This document shows positions 3,263-41,237 of a DNA stretch of 64,000 bases, in pieces; position 1 is the first letter of the stretch, and each line of letters begins with the position of its first letter. The stretch covers positions 7,070,001-7,134,000 of the forward strand of contig CM075993.1 in NCBI GenBank assembly GCA_038087875.1, in the 5' to 3' direction. The notes under the pieces were generated by a model, which had not been told where the DNA came from, made no database searches, and was given only the letters and a program-made list of their open reading frames with translations. The position numbers were made by a program, and so were the translations under genes. This DNA is from Malacoraja senta (Eukaryota).

Positions 3263-3674
3263 GCGCTCCAAGGAATAACGACCCTTACTAATCAAGAATG
3301 ATAGAAAGCTATTTAATCCGCAAATCATAAGTTTAAAATCCTCATTCTCTCTTTGTGAAGTTATTGGCAGACCAATCGTTAGCACACCGTTGTCTGTCAG
3401 CACATAACTCGTCAGCAGTTTGTACAGTTATATTCAACACCAATATAATCTTGGCTGGTTTCACTTGCACTAGCCAATCAACTACAAAAAATGATGGAGA
3501 GAGTAAGAATCTATTAACCGTTCATTTTTTACCTTTCATGTTTCCTAATCTCCCAAGTGTATATATCGATATGTTTACATTGTGTTCCCATTCATACCAT
3601 GCCTCACCTCATTCATTTATCATTCTGTTTATATATGACATCAAATAAACATTAGAGGACACACAGTATTTACT

Positions 3675-3850
3675 TCTTCTTCTTATCGAGTCCTCACACA
3701 AGATTAGAAGTTGTTCTGCCAGAGCTGAACACACTTCTCTGCATCTGCATACAATGGTGTCTGTCTTGTCGCTTCTTGTGCTTCTTGTGCGTGGTGGTGG
3801 AAAGATTGGTGGAAACAGGGCCGCGGCGTGAACGCTCTTTCCTTGACCCC
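3675..3850 (-). mobile_element. Short non-autonomous retroelement (probably Vingi/Ingi-derived) with a 5' HDV-like ribozyme and (GAA)n tail
   Basis: TSD ACAGTATTTACT at 3663-3674 and 3851-3862; minus-strand tail ...GATAAGAAGAAG; ribozyme fold at the 5' end. Confidence 0.8.
3799..3850 (-). ncRNA. HDV/CPEB3-like self-cleaving ribozyme (predicted)
   Basis: Minus strand reads GGGGTC-AA-GGAAAGA-GCG-TTCACGC-CGC-GGCCCT-GTTTCCA-CCAA-TCTTTCC: P1 with G1-U wobble, 7-bp P2, 3-bp P3, L3 TTCACGC, J4/2 C-C-A-A. Confidence 0.8.
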
Positions 3851-3908
3851 ACAGTATTTACTGAGTAAATTAATCAAATTCCTGACTCCAACAGAGCATT
3901 TCACTTGA

Positions 3909-4120
3909 GTAGACACAAAATGCTGGAGTAACTCAGCAGGTGAGGCAGCATCTATGGAGAGAAGGAATAGATGAGGTTTTGGGTCGAGACCCTTCTGTCT
4001 GAAGAAGGGTCTCGACCCAAAACGTTGCCAATTCTTTCTCCCCATAGATGCTGCCTCACCCGCTGAGTTACTCCAGCATTTTGTGTCTACCTTTGATTTA
4101 ACCAGCATCTGCAGTTCTTA
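3909..4120. mobile_element. Penelope terminal-repeat insertion in inverted (head-to-head) arrangement
   Basis: 19-bp flanking duplication AACAGAGCATTTCACTTGA at 3890-3908 and 4121-4139; the two halves are reverse complements and match the 3' end of 952-1866. Confidence 0.8.
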
Positions 4121-4357
4121 AACAGAGCATTTCACTTGACCTTTCTCCTCCGAATTACGTGTGGAAGAATGACTCAACATGCAGCATGCATTGATGTTGG
4201 CTAACACATCATGCAGCACGAGTGTCTGGGTGTTAGGTGAAGGCTGAGCCTGACTCCTTGTGATTTTAATTTCTTCAAGCACCCACTTGAGCATCGAGAG
4301 CTGCTGGAGCAATTGGGAGCTGTGTGGAAAGTTGGTGTGGGAAATGGGAAGGATACT

Positions 4358-15222: not shown

Positions 15223-16840
15223 CAGTGGCTTGCAAAAGTATTCATACCCCTTGAACTTTTCCACATTTTGTCACGTTACAACCACAAATGTAAATGTATT
15301 TTATTGGGATTTTATGTGATAGACCAACACAAAGTGGCGCATAATTGTGAAGTGGAAGGAAAATGATACATGGTTTTCAAATTTTTTTACAAATAAAAAA
15401 CTGAAAAGTGTCGCGTGCAAAAGTATTCAGCCCCCTTTACTCTGATACCCCTAAATAAAATCCAGTGCAACCAATTGCCTTCAGAAGTCGCCTAATTAGT
15501 AAATAGAGTCCACTTGTGTGTAATCTAATCTCAGTATAAATACAGCTGTTCTGTGAAGGCCTCAGAGGTTTGTTAGAGAACATTAGTGAACAAACAGCAT
15601 CATGAAGCCCAAGGAACACACCAGACAGGTCAGGGATAAAGTTGTGGAGAAGTTTAAAGCAGGGTTAGGTTATAAACAAATATCCCAAGCTTTGAACATC
15701 TCACGGAGCACTGTTCAATCCATCATCCGAAAATGGAAAGAGTATGGCACAACTGCAAACCTACCAAGACATGGCCGTCCACCTAAACTGACAGGCCGGG
15801 CAAGGAGAGCATTGATCAGAGAAGCAGCCAAGAGGCCCATGGTAACTCTGGAGGAGCTGCAGAGATCCACAGCTCAGGTGGGAGAATCTGTCCACAGGAC
15901 AACTATTAGTCGTGCACTCCACAAATCGGGCCTTTATGGCAGAGTGGCAAGAAGAAAGCCATTGTTGAAAAAAAGCCATAAGAAGTCCCGTTTGCAGATT
16001 GCCACAAGCCATGTGGGGGACACAGCAAACATGTGGAGGAAGGTGCTCTGGTCAGATGACCAAAATTGAAGTTTTTGGCCTAAATGCAAAATGCTATGTG
16101 TGGCGGAAACCTAACACTGCACATCAGCCTGAACACACCATCCCCACTGTGAAACATGGTGGTGGCAGCATCAGGGAAGCTGTGGGGATGCTTTTCTTCA
16201 GCAAGGACAGGGAAGCTGGTCAGAGTTGATGGGAAGATGGATGGAGCCAAATACAGGGTAATCTTGGAAGAAAACCTGTTAGAGTCTGCAAAAGACTTGA
16301 GACTGGGGCGGAGGTTCACCTTCCAGCAGGACAACGACCCTAAACATACAGCCAGAGCTACAATGGAATGGTTTAGATCAAAGCATATTCATGTGTTAGA
16401 ATGGCCCAGTCAAAGTCCAGACCTAAATCCAATTGAGAATCTCTGGCAAGACTTGAAAATTGCTGTTCACAGACGCTCTCCATCCAATCTGACTGAGCTT
16501 GAGCTATTTTGCAAAGAAGAATGGGCAAAAATTTCAGTCTCTAGATGTGCAAAGCTGGTAGAGACATACCCCAAAAGACTTGCAGCTGTAATTGCAGCGA
16601 AAGGTGGTTCTACAAAGTATTGACTCAGGGGGCTGAATACTTTTGCACGCGACACTTTTCAGTTTTTTATTTGTAAAAAAATTTGAAAACCATGTATCAT
16701 TTTCCTTCCACTTCACAATTATGCACCACTTTGTGTTGGTCTATCACATAAAATCCCAATAAAATACATTTACGTTTGTGGTTGTAACGTGACAAAATGT
16801 GGAAAAGTCCAAGGGGTATGAAAACTTTTGCAAGCCACTG
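15223..16840 (+). mobile_element. Full-length Tc1-family DNA transposon (~210-bp TIRs)
   Basis: TA-CAGTGGCTTGCAAAAGT ... ACTTTTGCAAGCCACTG-TA; long, nearly identical TIRs; transposase inside. Confidence 0.95.
15602..16623 (+). pseudogene. Tc1 transposase with two frameshifts
   Basis: Three overlapping frames give [44 protein letters not shown] and GGSTKY*; shifts near 16058 and 16175. Confidence 0.92.
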
Positions 16841-20063: not shown

Positions 20064-20899
20064 GACCAAACTGAAGTATGCCCCCACTCCAACCTACCTC
20101 GGAGTGACCCTTGACAGGACCCTATCCTTCAAGGAACATCTCAAAAGAACAGCAGCTAAGGTGAAGTCCAGAAACAATCTCCTCAGTAAGCTTGTTGGTT
20201 CAAAGTGGGGGGCAGCAGCCCCCACACTGCGCATTTCAGCACTAGCCCTTGCATTTTCTTCAGCCGAATATTGCGCCCCTGTTTGGTCCAGGTCATCCCA
20301 CACACATCATGTGGACACCCAATTGAACTCAACAATGAGGATCATCACAGGAACAATCCGCTCAACACCACTCCCCTGGCTCCCTGTCCTATCCAATGTA
20401 GCCTCTCCACACATCCGGCGAGTAGCCCTCACTCAAAGGATGCTCCAAAAGACCAAAAACTCCCCTCATCTGCCAATTCACATGGACATCTTCAACCCAC
20501 CCACTGCTCGACTTCCATCTAGACGACCAATTTGGAAGAACCCACCACCAGCTGATTTCACCACCCAATCAGCTTGGAAAAAGGAATGGGAGTCCAAGGA
20601 CGTCCCAAATAAACATCTGGTGTCAGACCCAACCCTACCGGTCCCTGGCACCAATCTCCCAAGGAAGCAGTGGACGACGCTGAATAGATTCAGGACTGGA
20701 CATGGCCCTTGCTTGGCCGGCCTTCACAAATGGGGCAGCAGCCCAACCCCACAGTGTGCTTGTGGAGAGCAGCAAACAATGCAACACATCATTGAAGCAT
20801 GCCCACAAAAAAGACTTAAAGGAGGACTTGTCACCCTTCATACAGCAGATCAAGAGGCAACTGCTTGGCTAAAGGACTTTGCATTCGCTAAATAAATAA
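20064..20899 (+). mobile_element. Vingi (Ingi-group) non-LTR retrotransposon, 5'-truncated, reading frame still open
   Basis: Uninterrupted PTYLGVTLDRTL...WGA...SALAL..S.AEYCAPVW...TPLPWLPVLSN...WTTLNRFRTGHG...CACG..QTMQHII; (TAAA)n tail; 13-bp TSD ACTCCTGCTTCTG at 20051-20063 and 20900-20912. Clade assignment is from remembered motifs. Confidence 0.82.
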
Positions 20900-23240
20900 A
20901 CTCCTGCTTCTGATTCCAATGTTCACATTTCTTAATTAGAAAGGTGTACAATTCGGAGTGGTGCTTGTTTTATCAAATTCTGCAGAAAAAAGCAGCAATT
21001 GGATTTGGATCAAAAGGAGAGACAACAATTGGGCTGCAAGATGAAGAAAGGAGGGTATGGAATTGAGGTGGGTGTAACTGGGACGCCAGGTATCACCGTA
21101 GAGCCCCTCTGGAGATGTTGTGGGCTTATCAATGAAACATCAAAGAAGGAGGGTGCCCACCTGATGACCCCGATGACGTACCTACCCTACCTTTCACCAC
21201 TCCAATCCCACTGCAAATAGCAAGAGTGCCGACTTATTACAGGGATTGAAACATCAAGTCCTATTAGCTCTACTATGCCACCTTTTACCTTTGTCTTCTG
21301 GTAGCCAGAGATCATGGAGCACAAAGATACTGTTAAAGAAACCTTGGTGAATCGCTGCAGTGTGTTTTGTCGGTGATGTAACGAATGAATGGTCAAGGTG
21401 CTGAACGGTGTGTTAATCAAACAGAATGTTTTGCCTCAAATACTCACAAAACTGCATGAGTGCTCCTGGTCTTGGAGTTAACCATGCAAGTGGAGAGTAT
21501 TTTCTCACACTCTCGATGTGTCTCATTGATTGTGGAAAGGCTTCAGAAACTCAGAGGTCGGTCATAGGATGATTTTCATGTGAGTAACCTATTAATGTGA
21601 AATATGAAGTTTATCAAAATCTTGGCATAGTATGAGGATGATAATTGAAACAAATGCATGCTGAGGAAAGAACTGACTTCATCCAGTGAGTCAAGGAAAG
21701 CTTATTTGATTTACAGGAAAATGAACTGATTAAAGTTTTCAAATTTAACATCCAAAGTGGTATATTCGCCAGACTAATATTCCTGCCACTTGCAGAAACT
21801 ATTGGCCAACTGCAGATATCCAATCTTATGTTTTGGATGATTGGATGTACTATAGAAAGGATCATTGAATATAAAAAAGTGCAGTGCAAGAACAAGCCTT
21901 TCGACCCACAGTCTGTGCCGATCATGATGCCAAGACCTACACATAATTCATGTCCTGCATATCCATACGCCTACCCAAAAGTCTCTTAAATGCCACTATC
22001 ATATCTGTCTCATCCACCACCCTTGGCAGCGTGTTCCAGGCACTCATTAACATCAGTGTAATTATTTTTAAGTTATACCATACCGCACGATCATGTATCA
22101 GTACAATAATATATTGGTACACTGTGAATGGCTTGACTGTAATCATGTATTGTCTTTCCGCTGACTGGTTAGCACGCAACAAAAGCTTTTCACTGTACCT
22201 CGGTACACGTGACAATAAACTAACTAAACATATCTCCTTTAAACTTTGCTCCTCTCACCTTAAAGCTACTGTATGTCCACTAATATTTGATTTTCCCATC
22301 TTGGGGGGAAAAGGCTCTGACTGTCTACTCTATCTATGCCTCTCATAACTTTACATACTAACATGCATTAGTTCAAGATGCATCATAGCTTGGTTTGACA
22401 ACAGCTTTGCTAGAAATTGCAGAGTTGAGGTTGCAGCCTAGTCCATCCCACAATACAGCCTCGCCCATCAACTCGATCTACACTTCATGCTGCCTCGGCA
22501 AAGAAACCAACATAGACAACCAACATAATCAAAGATGTTTTACATCCTGATCATTCCCTCTTCTCCCATCAGGCTGTAGATACAATAGCTTGGAAGCACA
22601 TACCACAAGATTCAGGAACAGCTTCTTCCCTGTTGTAAACAAACTACTGAATGTTCAGCTCAGAAGCAAACAATGTAGACCCAATCGCCCAACCTTACTC
22701 ATTGTGACCCTTGCACTATTTTTATCTGTACTTTCTCTATAACATTATAATGCTGCAACATTATATTCTGTACTCTGGTATTTTTCTCTTTGCACAACCT
22801 GTTGTATTTGTAGCTTGATTGTACTCGAGTATAGTACTTTACTGGATAGCGTTGCTAACAGGTTTTTACTGTTGTTCAGTACATGCAACAGTAATAAATC
22901 AATACCAACACCACAAAGCAAGTTGGCAAGCAAGGACTGTGCCACTGTTGACAGAAACCAAGACCCAGCTCATAACACACACACAGAGTGGTTGTACTGT
23001 CAAAGGACTTTTCCACCATTTCCAAAAGTCAATAAACCCTCCCTCATCCTAAACTCCAACGAGCGCAGATCCAGTGCCATCAAACACTCCTCATTCGTTA
23101 AACCAGTCATCTCCGGGATCATTCTCGGTAACCTGGATCCTCTCCAACATCAGCACATCCCTCCTCATATGTGGGGCAAAAAACTGCTCACAATGCTCCA
23201 AAGGCAGTCTGATCAGTGGCTTATTAAAGCCTCAGCAATA

Positions 23241-24548
23241 CGGTACATTCAGAAAGTATTCAGACCCCTTCACTTTTTCCACATTGTTACGTTACAGCCT
23301 TATTCTAAAATGGATTAATTTTTTTTTAAATCATCAATCTACACATAATATCCCATAATAAAAAAGCGAAAACAGGTGTGTTAGAAATTTTTGCAAAGTA
23401 ATTAAAAATAAATAACTGGATTACACAAGTATTCAGACCCTTTACTCAGTACTTTGTTGAGGCACCTTTGGCAGCGATTACAGCCTCAAGTCTTCTTGGG
23501 TATGACGCTACAAGCTTGGCACACCTGTATTTGGGTAATTTCTCCCATTCTTCTCTGCAGATCCTCTCAAGCTCTGTCAGGTTGGATGGGGAGCGTCGAT
23601 CCTGACTAGTCTTCCAGTTCCTGCCGCAGAAAAACATCTACACACCATGATACTGCCATCACCACGCTTGGCATTCAGGCCAAAGAGTTCAATCTTGGTT
23701 TCGTCAGACCAGAGAATCTTGTTTCTCATGGTCTGAGACTCCTTTAGGTACCTTTTGGCAAACTCCAAGCGGGCAGTCGTGTGCCTTTTACTGAGGAGTG
23801 GCTTCCGTCCAGCCATTCTACCATAAAGGCCTGATTGGTGGAGTGCTGCAGATATAATTGTCCTTCTGGAAGGCTCTCCCATCTCCACAGAGGAATTCTG
23901 GAGCTCTGTAAGAGTGACCATCGGGTTCTTGGTCACCTCCCTGACCAAGGCCCTTCTCCTCCAATTGCTCAGTTTGGCCTGGCGGGCAGCTCTATGAAGA
24001 GTCCTGGTGGTTCCAAAGTTCTTCTGTTTAAGAATGACGGAGGCCACTGTGCTCTTAGGGACCTACAATGTTGCAGAAATTGTCTTATACCCTTCCCCAG
24101 ATCTGTGTCTCGACACAATCCTCCCTCGGAGGTCTACGGACAATTCCTTCGTCTTCATGGATTGGTTTTTGCTCTGACATGCACTGTCAACTGTGGGACT
24201 TTATATAGACAGGTGTGTGCCTTTCCATATCATGTCCAATCAATTTAATTTACCACTGGTGGACTCCAATCAAGTTGTAGAAACATCTCAAGGATAATCA
24301 ATGGAAACAGGATGAGCCTAAGCTCAATTTTGAGCGTCATAGAAAAGGGTCTGAATACTTATGTAAATGTGATATTTCAGTTATTTCTTTTTAATTACTT
24401 GGCAAAAATGTCTAAACACCTGTTTTAGCTTCTTCATTCTGGGGTGTTGTGTGTAGATTGATGATAAAAAAATGAATTTTAAAATAAGGATGTAACGTAA
24501 CAAAATGTGGAAAAAGTGAAGGGGTCTGAATACTTTCTGAATGCACTG
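23241..24548 (-). mobile_element. Internally deleted Tc1 transposon (second family)
   Basis: TA flanks; TIR CATTCAGAAAGTATTCAGACCCCTTCACTTTTTCCAC at both ends; KILWSDETKIELFG and AVIAAKGASTKY* present; most of the catalytic region deleted. Confidence 0.9.
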
Positions 24549-36852: not shown

Positions 36853-39246
36853 ATGGGTGACATGAAGACTCCAGATTTTGATGATCTTCTTGCTGCTTTT
36901 GACATTCCTGATCCAGATCTCGATGCCAAGGAGACTATCCAGTCAAGTAGTGAGGAATCCGAAGCTCATCTGAAACAAGCAGGGATGGGTATAGATGAGC
37001 TGTCTATCCATCAAGCCATACCTGACGTTCCAGTGGTGAGTGTCATTGTTAAGAACACCAGTCGACAAGAATCCTTTGAATCTATTACGGAGAAGGATGG
37101 CCATCAGCTCGGACCAAATCTGCTTCAAAATGGGTTTCGAAACGCTGACATTACCTCTGATTCCAATAACTACAACAAAATGGTCAGTGACTTCATCAAT
37201 GGAGATACTTCCAGAAACTACTCGAGTAAATTTGACACACCAAGGTCAGATGCCCTACCGACATTCAGTCAGTTTAGTCCCATTTCTAGCCCGGAGCCTG
37301 AAGAAGCCATGCCAAATGCTGGAATTGTGGATCATATTAAACCAGACAAAGGGCCTTACCTTGGTTCTGTCGGATTGTATATTTCTACCAATAGTTCACT
37401 GATGAACAATGCAAGAGAACAGCCTGAACAAGTTGTGACTGAGCTGAGCATGTTTGATGAATACTCCAAAAAGCGAGAGAAAGCAAATGAGATTAGAAAC
37501 TGTAAAATGAATGAAGTTTCATTGGGACAAAAGGCGAATTCAACAATGACATCTGAAGAAGAGCAAGAGAACAAGGACTTTGACAAAAGCAGTAGTTTGT
37601 TTGACAACTTGGAGTCTTCATGTAACCTGCATAATAATAGTATGGAAGAGCCAAAGACTCTTGTCAGTGCTCCGGAATTGAGCATGTGCTCCTCTGTGCC
37701 CTCTCGTCAACGTCTAAAGTCAGCGCATTCAAAACTCACCTCTTGCTTAGCAGCGTTGGTAGCTCTTAATCCCAAAAAAGTAGCAGAGTTCCCAAAGGAG
37801 GAACACAAGGAGAATTCTAAAGAACCGTTGTTGGGTTTGAAGGAGAGTGTCCGAGGCAGTCCCAAAATGGCAAAGTCGCCAAAGAGTCCGAGAAGTCCCA
37901 TGGAAGGAGTAAAGAAAATGGTGAGCAAGCAATCCGATAGCCCAAGGAGTGTATCCAGTGACTACAGCGGCAAAGGATCTCCATATGTTGCAACGGGCTC
38001 GCCGCCGGCCATCCCAAAAGTACGGATCAAAACCATTAAAACATCTTCCGGTGAAATTACCAGGACTGTGACCAGGATAATGCCAGACTCTGAACAGAGT
38101 GAGTCGAGGAGTTCACCTGAACAGTCGGTGACTGAAATGGCTTTAAGTGAGGAATTCAGTTTAAGATCTAGCCCTCTGGCCCATGCTTCATTAGCGATGG
38201 ATAATGTAAAGAGGCCATTGTTATACAATAACATGGCTAATGCTGTCACCGCACCATCTAATACATCTGTCAAGGGGACTCCTACCCTGATGTACGATGA
38301 AAACGTGAATGGCAACAGCAGCTTCAAAGCATTAGGTATAGCAAATATATCACCCGAGAGTGCGAGCAGTGCCATGTTGAAGGCAGCCAGCGTGGCCCAA
38401 CTACAGAAGCAGCTCGGGGCAAAGCAGCCGGTAAATCTCCCCAGCACGAATCTCCTACCGAAAGCGGTTCACTTGGCAAGCCTCAACTTGGTTCCACACA
38501 GCATTGCTGCCACTGCCACAGTCAGGTCCACTACTTTGCGGCAGAGCCACCACAAGATTGCCACTCAGGTAGTCACAGTGCCGCTGGTACAGCAAATCAA
38601 GAACGTGGTCCCACAGAATGATGAGTCTCCTAGTTCCGCTCAGAACGTTGTGGTTGAAGCTTTTAACAAGCTGTTAAACGGTACTAACCCTGTGCCAATC
38701 TACGCTCCAAACCTGAAGCCACCAGCAGACAGTAATGTGTCCATGCCAGCTCGTGGCTATCGCTGTTTAGAATGTGGGGATGCGTTTGCTCTGGAAAAGA
38801 GTTTATCACAGCACTATGAGCGGCGAAGTGTTCACATTGAGATGATGTGCAGCCACTGTTCCAAAGTTATTGTCTTCTTCAACAAATGCAGCTTGTTGCT
38901 GCACGCGCGGGAACACAAGGGCAAAGGTGCTGTTATGCAGTGCTCGCAGTTACAAATGAAGCCTATCCCATCCGACCAAATGTTTTCAACTACCCCAGTA
39001 ACCTCTTCTGTGACGTCAGGTACTCTTGCCCAAGATGAGACCTCTGGTGGTGGCCAGGACGATGGGAACTTGACAGTAATTGGAATGGGTAGCTCAGCTT
39101 TCAATCATCCTGCACTGCCGCTGCACTGCGATTCACTCAGATTAATACGTCATGGGTTAAAATGTCTCGAATGCGAGCAACAGTTCCAGGATTGTGCGAA
39201 TCTTGCAGGTCACTACCAGCGGGTTACAGAAGATGCAGAAACACTG
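36853..39246 (+). CDS. ZNF592: Zinc finger protein 592, first coding exon (798 codons; exon starts at 36840)
   Basis: Acceptor TTTCCTTTAAG ends 36839; MGDMKTPDFDDLLAAFDIPD...LDAKETIQ...PDVPVVSVIVKNTSRQESFE best matches ZNF592 within the ZNF532/592/687 family; C2H2 fingers; donor GTGAGT at 39247, phase 0. Confidence 0.92.
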
Positions 39247-39348
39247 GTGAGTACATTCAAACAACATTGGGGTTGCCATATCTTATTCAAGATGAATAGA
39301 ATAGGTAATGGAACCTTTGTATTGAAATGTATCAATATTTATTGTATA

Positions 39349-41237
39349 CAGTGCCCTCCATAATGCTTGGGACAAAGACCAACCATTTATTTATTTGCCT
39401 CTGTACTCCACACTGAGATTTGTAATAAAAAAAATCACATGTGGTTAAAGTGCACATTGTCAGATTTTAACAAAGGCCATTTTTATACATTTTGGTTTCA
39501 CCATGTAGAAAACACAGCTGTGTTTATACATAGTCCCACCCCCATTTCAGGGCACCACAATGTTTTGGACACAGCAATGTCATGTAAATGAAAATAGTCA
39601 TGTTTAGTATTTTGTTGCATATCCTTTGCATGCAATGACTGCTTGAAGTCTGCGATTCATGGACGTCACCAGTTGCTGGGTGTTTCTCTGGTAATGCTCT
39701 GCCAGGCTAGTTCCCTTCAGTTTCTCTTCAACATATAAATGGCATGCTCAATTGGGTTCAGATCGGGTGATTGACTTGGCCACTCAAGAATGGACCATTT
39801 TTTAACTTTGGAAATACTCCTTTAGCAGTATGTTTGGGATCATTGTCTTGCCGTAGAATGAACCGCCAGCCAATGAGTTTTGAGGCATTTGTTTGAACTT
39901 GAGCAGATAGGATGTGTCTATACACTTCAGAATTAATTATGCTACTACCATCAGCAGTTGTATAATCAATGAAGATAAGTGAGCCAGTACCTTCAGCAGC
40001 CATACATGCCCAGGCCATAACACCACCACCACCGTGTTCCACAGATGAGGTGGTATGCTTTGGACCTTGGGCAGTTCCTTCTCTCCTCCATACTTTGCTC
40101 TTGCCATCACTCTGATATAAGTTAATCTTCATCTCATCTATCCACAAGACCTTTTTCCAGAACTGTGGTCGCTCTTTTAAGTACTTCATGGCAAACTGTA
40201 ACCTGGCCATCCTATTTTTGCAGCTAACCAGTGGTTTGCATCTTGCAGTGTAGCCTCTGTATTTCTGTTCATGAAGTCTTCTGCGGACAGTGGTCATTGA
40301 CAAATCCACACCTGAAGAGTGTTTCTGATCTGTCGGACAGGTGTTTGGTTTTTTTTCTTTATTATAGAGAGAATTCTTCTGTCATCAGCTGTGGACGTCT
40401 TCCTTGGCCTGCCAGTCCCTTTGTGGTTAGTAAGCTCACCAGTGCTCTCTTCTCAATGATGTTCCAAACAGTTGATTTTGGTAAGCCTAAGATTTGGCTG
40501 ATGTCTCCAACAGTTTTACTCTTGTTTCTCAGTCTCATAATGGCTTCTTTGACTTTCATTGGCACAACTTTGGTCCTCATGTTGATAAACAGCAATAAAA
40601 GTTTCCAAAGGTGATGGAAAGACTAGAGGAAAGACTAGGTGCTGAGAGCTCTCTTATACCTGCATTAAGGAGGCAATTAAACACACCTGAGAGAGATTAG
40701 AGAGATTCCTTTATTTGTCATTCAGACCTTTCGGTCTGAACGAAATTTCGTTGCCTGCAGTCATACATATAATAATAAATGACAAAACACACAATAAACA
40801 CAAATTAACATCCACCACAGTGAGTTCACCAGGCACCTCCTCACTGTGATGGAGGCAAAAGTCTTAAAGTCTCTGTCTCTTCCCGCTTTGTTCTCCCTCT
40901 GCGCTGAGGCGATCCAGGCTTCTGATGCTGTGACCCCGCCGGGCGACGGTAAGCCAGTCCCGCGGCCGATTACAAACATGCATGAAGCCATGTGTCCCAA
41001 ACATTGTGGTGCCCTGAAATGGGGGGGAGGGGGGGGGGGGGGGGACGACTATGTATAAACACAACTGTAATTTCTACATGATGAAACCAAAATGTATAAA
41101 AATGGCCTTTACTAAAATCTGACAGTGTGCATTTTAACCACATGTGATTTTTTTTCTATTACAAATCTCCAATTGTGGAGTACAGAGGCAAATAAATAAA
41201 AGATGGGTCTTTGTCCCAAACATTATAGAGGGCACTG
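39349..41237 (-). mobile_element. Tc1 transposon (third family, decayed) with a nested insertion
   Basis: TA-CAGTGCCCTCCATAATG ... CATTATAGAGGGCACTG long TIRs; KVLWIDEMKINL, HGGGGVMAW, RQDNDPKH on the minus strand. Confidence 0.9.
40690..40968 (-). mobile_element. 3' part of a non-autonomous Rex/Babar-tailed element inserted in the Tc1
   Basis: Tail hairpin TTCAGACC-TTTC-GGTCTGAA; similarity to 56040-56200 and 2927-3100. Confidence 0.6.

Follow-up and report, generated by a model that had tools for sequence, protein, structure and literature searches.

A 176-nt retroelement on the minus strand of the window (the whole stretch of 64,000 nt analysed here), running from 3850 to 3675, was found to start with a 52-nt HDV-like ribozyme fold that has no P4 and to end in the 3' end of a LINE assigned to the Vingi type. 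We consider it quite probable that the element operates in the same manner as those internally deleted derivatives of R2 and L1Tc that have a ribozyme at their head, with cleavage of its RNA predicted 5' of the first base; new here is a form of such an element that is Vingi-derived, resident in a vertebrate, P4-less and built on a 6-bp P1. Established directly were the copy number, target site duplications (TSDs), a common start at G1, a tail derived from a LINE, and the fold together with its covariation between families. The larger yield of the analysis is a lineage of Vingi ribozymes and its link to the mammalian CPEB3 ribozyme.

The element lies between perfect 12-bp direct repeats at 3851–3862 (upstream copy) and 3663–3674 (downstream copy), which place its start at G1 = 3850, at the TSD edge where the earlier note had seen the minus strand begin. 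In contigs of a relative, organism G, position 3649 is joined to 3850 with 12 other letters and a single copy of the TSD, revealing the insertion to be absent from this relative although the family is present there. On the minus strand, the fold (3799–3850) is followed by a length-variable middle part (3751–3798), which is presumably a remnant of a LINE 5' UTR or ORF start, by the 3' end of the partner LINE (3685–3750), comprising the last ~15 codons, a stop at 3704–3706 and a short 3' UTR, and by a (GAA)n tail (3675–3684). The coding-like stub and the tail that had been noticed at the outset are thus both present in the sequence.

The copy-number search that the earlier note had proposed, carried out on 1.94 Gb of genome in 6182 contigs, found the first 24 nt 928 times without a mismatch and the reversed control not once, corresponding to at least 928 copies, and the best 40 full-length matches were 97–100% identical to the element. 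A 5' end common to all copies had also been foreseen: all 30 of the closest copies begin at G1, and no common sequence was found upstream of it among them. TSDs were present in 28 of these 30, with the edge either at G1 (15) or 1–3 nt inside the G-run (13), the latter reflecting microhomology with the target. Among 30 copies chosen by their 5' motif, the 3' end was present in 25 and a TSD in 22; in 17 of these 22 the offset was 0 to +2, and in the other 5 it was −1 or −2. Family TSDs are 8–15 bp long, the tail is (GAA)n, and 5' truncation was seen in just 4 of 38 distinct insertions chosen by their 3' end. Among loci L001–L090, the base following the TSD in the target is often a G, the same as the first bases of the element (13 of the 28 closest copies), which is likely to reflect microhomology priming of second-strand synthesis.

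The first 52 nt parse as a nested double pseudoknot with P1, P2, P3 and P1.1 in the HDV-like order. The 5' strand of P1 (3845–3850) pairs with 3817–3822 over 6 bp, including the wobble pairs G1-U34 and U5-G30, so that G1 is paired with U34 at the predicted cut site, which is the 5' end of the element. J1/2 has 2 nt, and all 7 bp of P2 are formed between 3836–3842 and 3799–3805. P3 (3 bp) and the 7-nt L3 are of CPEB3 type (3823–3835). The descriptor parse assigns 3810–3816 to the P1.1 strand (G35, U36) and to a 5-nt linker in place of P4; P1.1 itself consists of C21-G35 plus U20/U36. J4/2 (3806–3809) follows the C-N-R-A rule with the catalytic C first, here as C42-C-A-A, a C-N-A-A form with the predicted catalytic C42 at 3809. 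Of the fold described in the earlier note, the G1-U pair, the 7-bp P2, P3 and the C-N-A-A J4/2 were recovered, and two points needed correction, P1 being just 6 bp long and P4, for which a trace had been allowed, wholly absent. The 5-nt linker without P4 corresponds to minimal HDV-like forms; because P1 has 6 bp instead of the canonical 7, which CPEB3 and theta ribozymes have, the fold is a variant of the HDV-like fold and not a canonical member.

With the Rfam CPEB3 model (RF00622), the window copy scored 30.0 bits (E 2.4e-5), a match that supports the expected likeness while staying below the gathering score of 35; one copy with a single extra C reached 36.3 bits. The P3/L3 described as nearly identical to that of CPEB3 is so in most of the family, 26 of 29 copies chosen by their 5' end sharing with CPEB3 a T as the last L3 base; in the window copy, of a young subfamily, this base is C. 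Our own descriptor, written after seeing the element, gave 2 matches in the 64-kb window, both at the 5' ends of TSD-flanked elements, and none in 150 windows of equal length generated by a first-order Markov model. Nested-fold stability was ordinary (z −0.86), which is unremarkable since a pseudoknot is expected to score so. C42 is kept in 61 of 63 full copies (29/29 and 32/34), and all pairs and core bases are intact in only 37 of the 63. In the nested fold, the bases right after P2 form a competing helix that captures the 5' strand of P1 (G1–U5).

A search of the genome for the APE domain revealed about eight to nine further Vingi-like families (A–I) that start with an HDV-like fold; by inspection, all or part of the fold is found at their 5' ends, that of family E being clipped. 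The covariation set comprised nine families, namely seven of A–I, with E and F left unparsed by the relaxed descriptor, and two small elements. With a parse chosen to maximise pairing, and with P1.1 barely scored, 59 of 61 cells were paired in P1, 62 of 63 in P2 and 25 of 27 in P3, with 14, 27 and 6 double changes, respectively (47 in total). Strands swapped between families paired at 0.64 and 0.55, compared with 0.97 and 0.98 unswapped. P1.1 covaries as well: an L3 starting with TTC goes with GT, TCC with GG and TTT with AC, the exception being TCC with GT in family I. Covariation is a property seen across families; none is expected inside the young window family. An L3 ending in C, as in the window copy, recurs in family H, and the only other 6-bp P1 parse comes from decayed copies of family D. 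With RF00622, three of three family A copies tested passed the cut-off of 35 (59.7, 64.2 and 56.7 bits), the passing 5' ends being L283 (C1), L299 (C21) and L254 (C7); none of the seven other families tested passed, family E coming nearest at 34.4 bits. In the part of Kojima 2018 that was available (PMC5786205), six ribozyme-bearing clades are given, and Vingi is not among them. The family A copies L246/L296 and L252/L298, which have long open frames, carry the first ~26 nt of the ribozyme several times in tandem, which suggests slippage of reverse transcriptase between the P1 strands.

The element is filed under neither RF00622 nor the theta ribozymes. With drz-Mtgn, a minimal HDV-like ribozyme, and the theta ribozymes (PMC10879173, as far as available) it has in common the missing P4, a short L4, the C-N-A-A motif and a length of 52–55 nt, and minimal P4-less HDV-like ribozymes are described there to cleave in vitro. 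The same source places ~99% of the minimal forms in tailed phages, often after tRNAs, the eukaryotes searched being human, mouse and protists. The present element, by contrast, heads an animal retroelement, a vertebrate repeat with no tRNA in the window, so that neither the phage location nor the tRNA directly upstream applies; its P1 is 6 bp long and its P1.1 contains one C-G only. The commonest theta layout is 7/2/7/3/7/3/7/2/6/4/7 nt, with a 7-bp P1 and a 6-nt loop, against 6/2/7/3/7/3/6/2/5/4/7 with a 6-bp P1 and a 5-nt linker here. With CPEB3 it shares P3/L3, identical in the family majority, a P1.1 of one C-G plus U/U and the G1-U wobble, and it differs in being multicopy and mobile, in a P1 shorter by one pair, in the missing P4 and in a P2 altered by compensatory changes.

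As a retroelement, it resembles the R2 SIDEs of Drosophila (PMC3414825) and NARTc, RIME and SIDER of trypanosomatids (PMC4035085), which, in the sections available, combine a 5' HDV-like ribozyme with a LINE 3' end, have no ORF and feature TSDs, a precise 5' junction and no Pol III head; in Drosophila, such internally deleted elements are reported to cleave (PMC3414825). Unlike them, the element is dispersed in a vertebrate, 176 nt long and P4-less, with a Vingi tail. Vingi-1_EE, SINE2-1_ACar and SINE2-1_AMi (Kojima 2018, PMC5786205, in part) are likewise bipartite derivatives of Vingi LINEs, from which the element differs by having no tRNA head. A description of this element family was not found in the literature searched.

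The origin of the tail was traced from the unmatched edge at 3750 in DNA contigs, which gave 29 genomic matches. All 29 partner LINE copies continue into the last 55–77 nt of the element with 79–91% identity; upstream of the stub they carry the end of the RT and a C-terminal CCHC knuckle. Three partner copies reached 3'-end alignment scores of 115–121, compared with 25–40 for 16 loci of other families. The nearest proteins include APE+RT proteins of 900–1000 aa, encoded on contigs of ~3.2 kb and devoid of an RNase H domain; RNase H is absent from the reference protein P0002 and from L296, and the partner pieces are colinear with P0002 to its C-terminus. An APE-RT architecture without RNase H is what distinguishes Vingi from Ingi in the available part of PMC13708176, and the assignment of the partner to the Vingi type and not to Ingi is supported on this architecture. 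As to the claims of a Vingi-type element and of a missing Pol III promoter, the former agrees with the final ~75 nt of the element, which have a counterpart at the 3' ends of 29/29 copies of a LINE with RT and CCHC but no RNase H, and the latter with the outcome that neither A/B boxes (best boxes with 2 mismatches) in the element nor a tRNA in the window was found. Nor was there an Rfam match to a tRNA, 5S or 7SL head, so that the element does not class as a Pol III SINE.

Several other routes to the LINE were abandoned. A genome search with PF14529 led to another LINE clade, with 0 of 30 loci matching the element; the best matches to the 3' end were small elements throughout (30/30); two exclusion patterns gave 11 and 1 matches, none of them a LINE; and the unmatched edge at 3770 gave 3 matches, none a LINE 5' end. 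A pattern with a longer P4 gave 38 matches, and the 30 retrieved were all variants of the small element. Of those 38, 27 carry 4 extra nt in L3; the subfamily so defined (within loci L123–L150) is clustered in few chromosome regions, e.g., C2 86–90 Mb and 192–195 Mb. A short 3' fragment of the partner LINE was seen multiplied with its flanks on several small contigs (L172, L174–L179), likely by segmental or satellite expansion. Another APE-RT LINE family with many open frames of 1277 aa (L091–L120) is apparently young. In the window itself, at ~20070–20900 (+), a 5'-truncated copy of another Vingi-like family was found, with a (TAAA)n tail, a 13-bp TSD and a 3' end nearly identical to L309.

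According to the mechanism we propose, the element would be transcribed by read-through from outside, its RNA would fold co-transcriptionally, P1/P3 before P2, and a C42-driven cut would free the element RNA at G1. A Vingi APE-RT protein would then bind the tail and insert the element at new sites via target-primed reverse transcription. As the cut lies on the 5' side of the ribozyme, the latter is passed on to every full copy. Every partner piece seen is truncated or frameshifted, though the small element has copies that are 99% identical. Open frames of 986–1014 aa are present in families A and C, whose 3' ends show a similar short motif followed by (GAA)n; given these intact frames and similar 3' ends, cross-mobilisation of the small element by them is possible.

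The common start at G1 would fit a promoter as well as a ribozyme. It is somewhat doubtful, and still the foremost alternative, that the first 52 nt, like L1Tc Pr77, act both as a ribozyme and as an internal promoter for Pol II, so that transcription started at G1 gives most of the RNA. L1Tc Pr77 does both, its cut coinciding with the start site (PMC3185411 and PMC8256844, in their available parts), and Pol II transcription of bipartite LINEs is expected by Kojima in the accessible text of PMC5786205. The nine families, however, keep the pairings and not the letters of P1 and P2, which points to selection on RNA structure, and such a promoter would be compatible with the ribozyme-headed reading, shifting only the source of the RNA.

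In polyA RNA of organism G, 223 reads fell on the element, from ~6% of the run. Of these, 67 pass G1 into unlike sequence, and no pile-up of read ends was evident anywhere on the element. The reads are mostly 90–95% alike, thus from older copies, come in both orientations and derive from fragment libraries, which lose 5' ends; they do not support cleavage in vivo, yet do not refute it. Together with the short P1, the competing helix after P2 would speak against activity, as would the sensitivity of the CPEB3 P1 to mutation reported in the available part of PMC9901934. The missing pile-up and the 67 read-through reads, the 6-bp P1, the competing helix and the spread of the subfamily with the L3 insertion (27/38 matches) could all be accommodated if the fold were a weak or dead catalytic relic that serves as a protective 5' structure or protein-binding site, the 5' end being set by the transcription start. 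We regard this as unlikely, since most of the family has C42, J4/2, P1.1 and L3 intact and a second family, independently, combines the same linker length of 5 nt with a P1 of the full 7 bp.

The 5' half of the element would, on this reading, descend from the partner LINE by internal deletion. The partner pieces span residues 166–996 of P0002, mostly with 53–85% identity; the upstream walk along the LINE came to an end at residue 166 of this reference protein, and of the 150 APE matches in the genome, neither the 30 nor the 40 loci inspected yielded the partner 5' end. This leaves room, if little, for a chimera in which template switching fused the ribozyme of one Vingi family with the tail of a second, as in the R2/R1 hybrids of Drosophila; hybrid elements exist (PMC3414825, in part), and the first 36 nt of the element are ~80% like family A. 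No LINE family examined, however, has this P2 or is without P4, so that none offers a better donor, and simple deletion is the usual Vingi route in the available text of PMC5786205.

The comparison was extended to crocodilian sequences printed in the supplement of PMC5786205, Vingi-2_Gav (nt 2–74) and SINE2-1_AMi (nt 61–127). With position 1 and the 4 nt of the P4 loop excluded, they agree by eye with the Rfam CPEB3 consensus at 54/62 and 57/62 positions, respectively; in the alligator SINE2-1_AMi, 14 of 14 P4 stem bases and all of P2 are as in the consensus. Within the genome searched here, nt 2–47 of the family A end L283 were alike to Vingi-2_Gav at 39 of 46 positions by eye. Because J1/2, P2 and P4 also match, yet vary freely among the Vingi families of this genome, common ancestry of the crocodilian sequences and CPEB3 appears much likelier than convergence. 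Convergence forced by the fold, for which one may cite the similar L3 letters of phage theta ribozymes, R2 and HDV cores alike at 21/27 nt (PMC8256844, in part) and the restriction of the window element's own match to P3/L3/P1/P1.1, is improbable in view of the J1/2, P2 and P4 matches of the crocodilian sequences. The window element agrees with CPEB3 at 20 of 22 of these core positions by eye, with P2 and P4 not in common, and is a more distant cousin of CPEB3 than the crocodilian sequences are.

The CPEB3 ribozyme is, as judged from these alignments, likely an exapted 5' end of a Vingi element. The direction from mobile element to CPEB3 intron is likely, given that ribozymes of this kind stand at the start of many mobile Vingi families and that traces of Vingi are present in the human genome (PMC5753468, in the part available). 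The ribozyme of the window element would then be a shrunken member of the Vingi 5'-end lineage that likely also yielded mammalian CPEB3. Taken as a whole, we lean towards a history in which HDV-like starts are a clade-wide feature of Vingi, derivatives shrank at least twice to P4-less forms of 52–54 nt and the CPEB3 ribozyme is a domesticated amniote Vingi 5' end that has gone unrecognised in print. A CPEB3-Vingi link was not found in the literature searched, whose coverage leaves outside key earlier work (Ruminski 2011, Kojima 2011, Webb 2009, Webb and Luptak 2011) that possibly holds animal Ingi/Vingi examples; one apparent match was to 'Tvingi'. In the available text of PMC8233481, the main evolutionary study of the CPEB3 ribozyme, the words 'origin' and 'transpos' are absent, and the accessible parts of PMC10919898, PMC8256844 and PMC6765202 give no source for it. 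Domestication is suggested in general terms in PMC7761336, and the use of HDV-like ribozymes by some metazoan LINEs and SINEs is stated in the available part of PMC6765202.

These results provide a concrete, testable origin for the conserved intronic, memory-linked CPEB3 ribozyme. Vingi joins the LINE clades with 5' ribozymes, which would explain its bipartite derivatives. Vingi-1 of Anolis is used in gene-writing platforms with its native 5' UTR, which we take to hold the fold; RNA design would be affected if this UTR self-cleaves. The element family also offers ~1000 natural copies of a minimal ribozyme in one animal genome, and the origin and function of minimal HDV-like forms are given as open in the available text of PMC10879173.

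A second mini-element was found in the window on the minus strand at 35534–35673 (140 nt), with a 12-bp TSD and a GAA tail, and with a sequence unrelated to the first. Its P4-less HDV-like fold (35620–35673; 54 nt) has a 7-bp P1 and a 5-nt linker; no meaningful Rfam match was obtained, and 3 more distinct copies were present among the retrieved loci. Both mini-elements lie antisense to an 861-codon open frame at 36778–39363 (+), and the RNA of the gene concerned would therefore not be cut. This frame encodes a ZNF592-like zinc finger and is probably a large exon of the host, which it identifies as a vertebrate. Adjoining the first element, a ~230-bp palindromic repeat lies at ~3890–4140 between ~19-bp direct repeats; matches to miRNA families at 3931–4067 fall on this repeat, stayed below the cut-offs and were dismissed. 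Remnants of Tc1/mariner transposases were detected at 15590–16623, 23577–24062 and 39758–40381.
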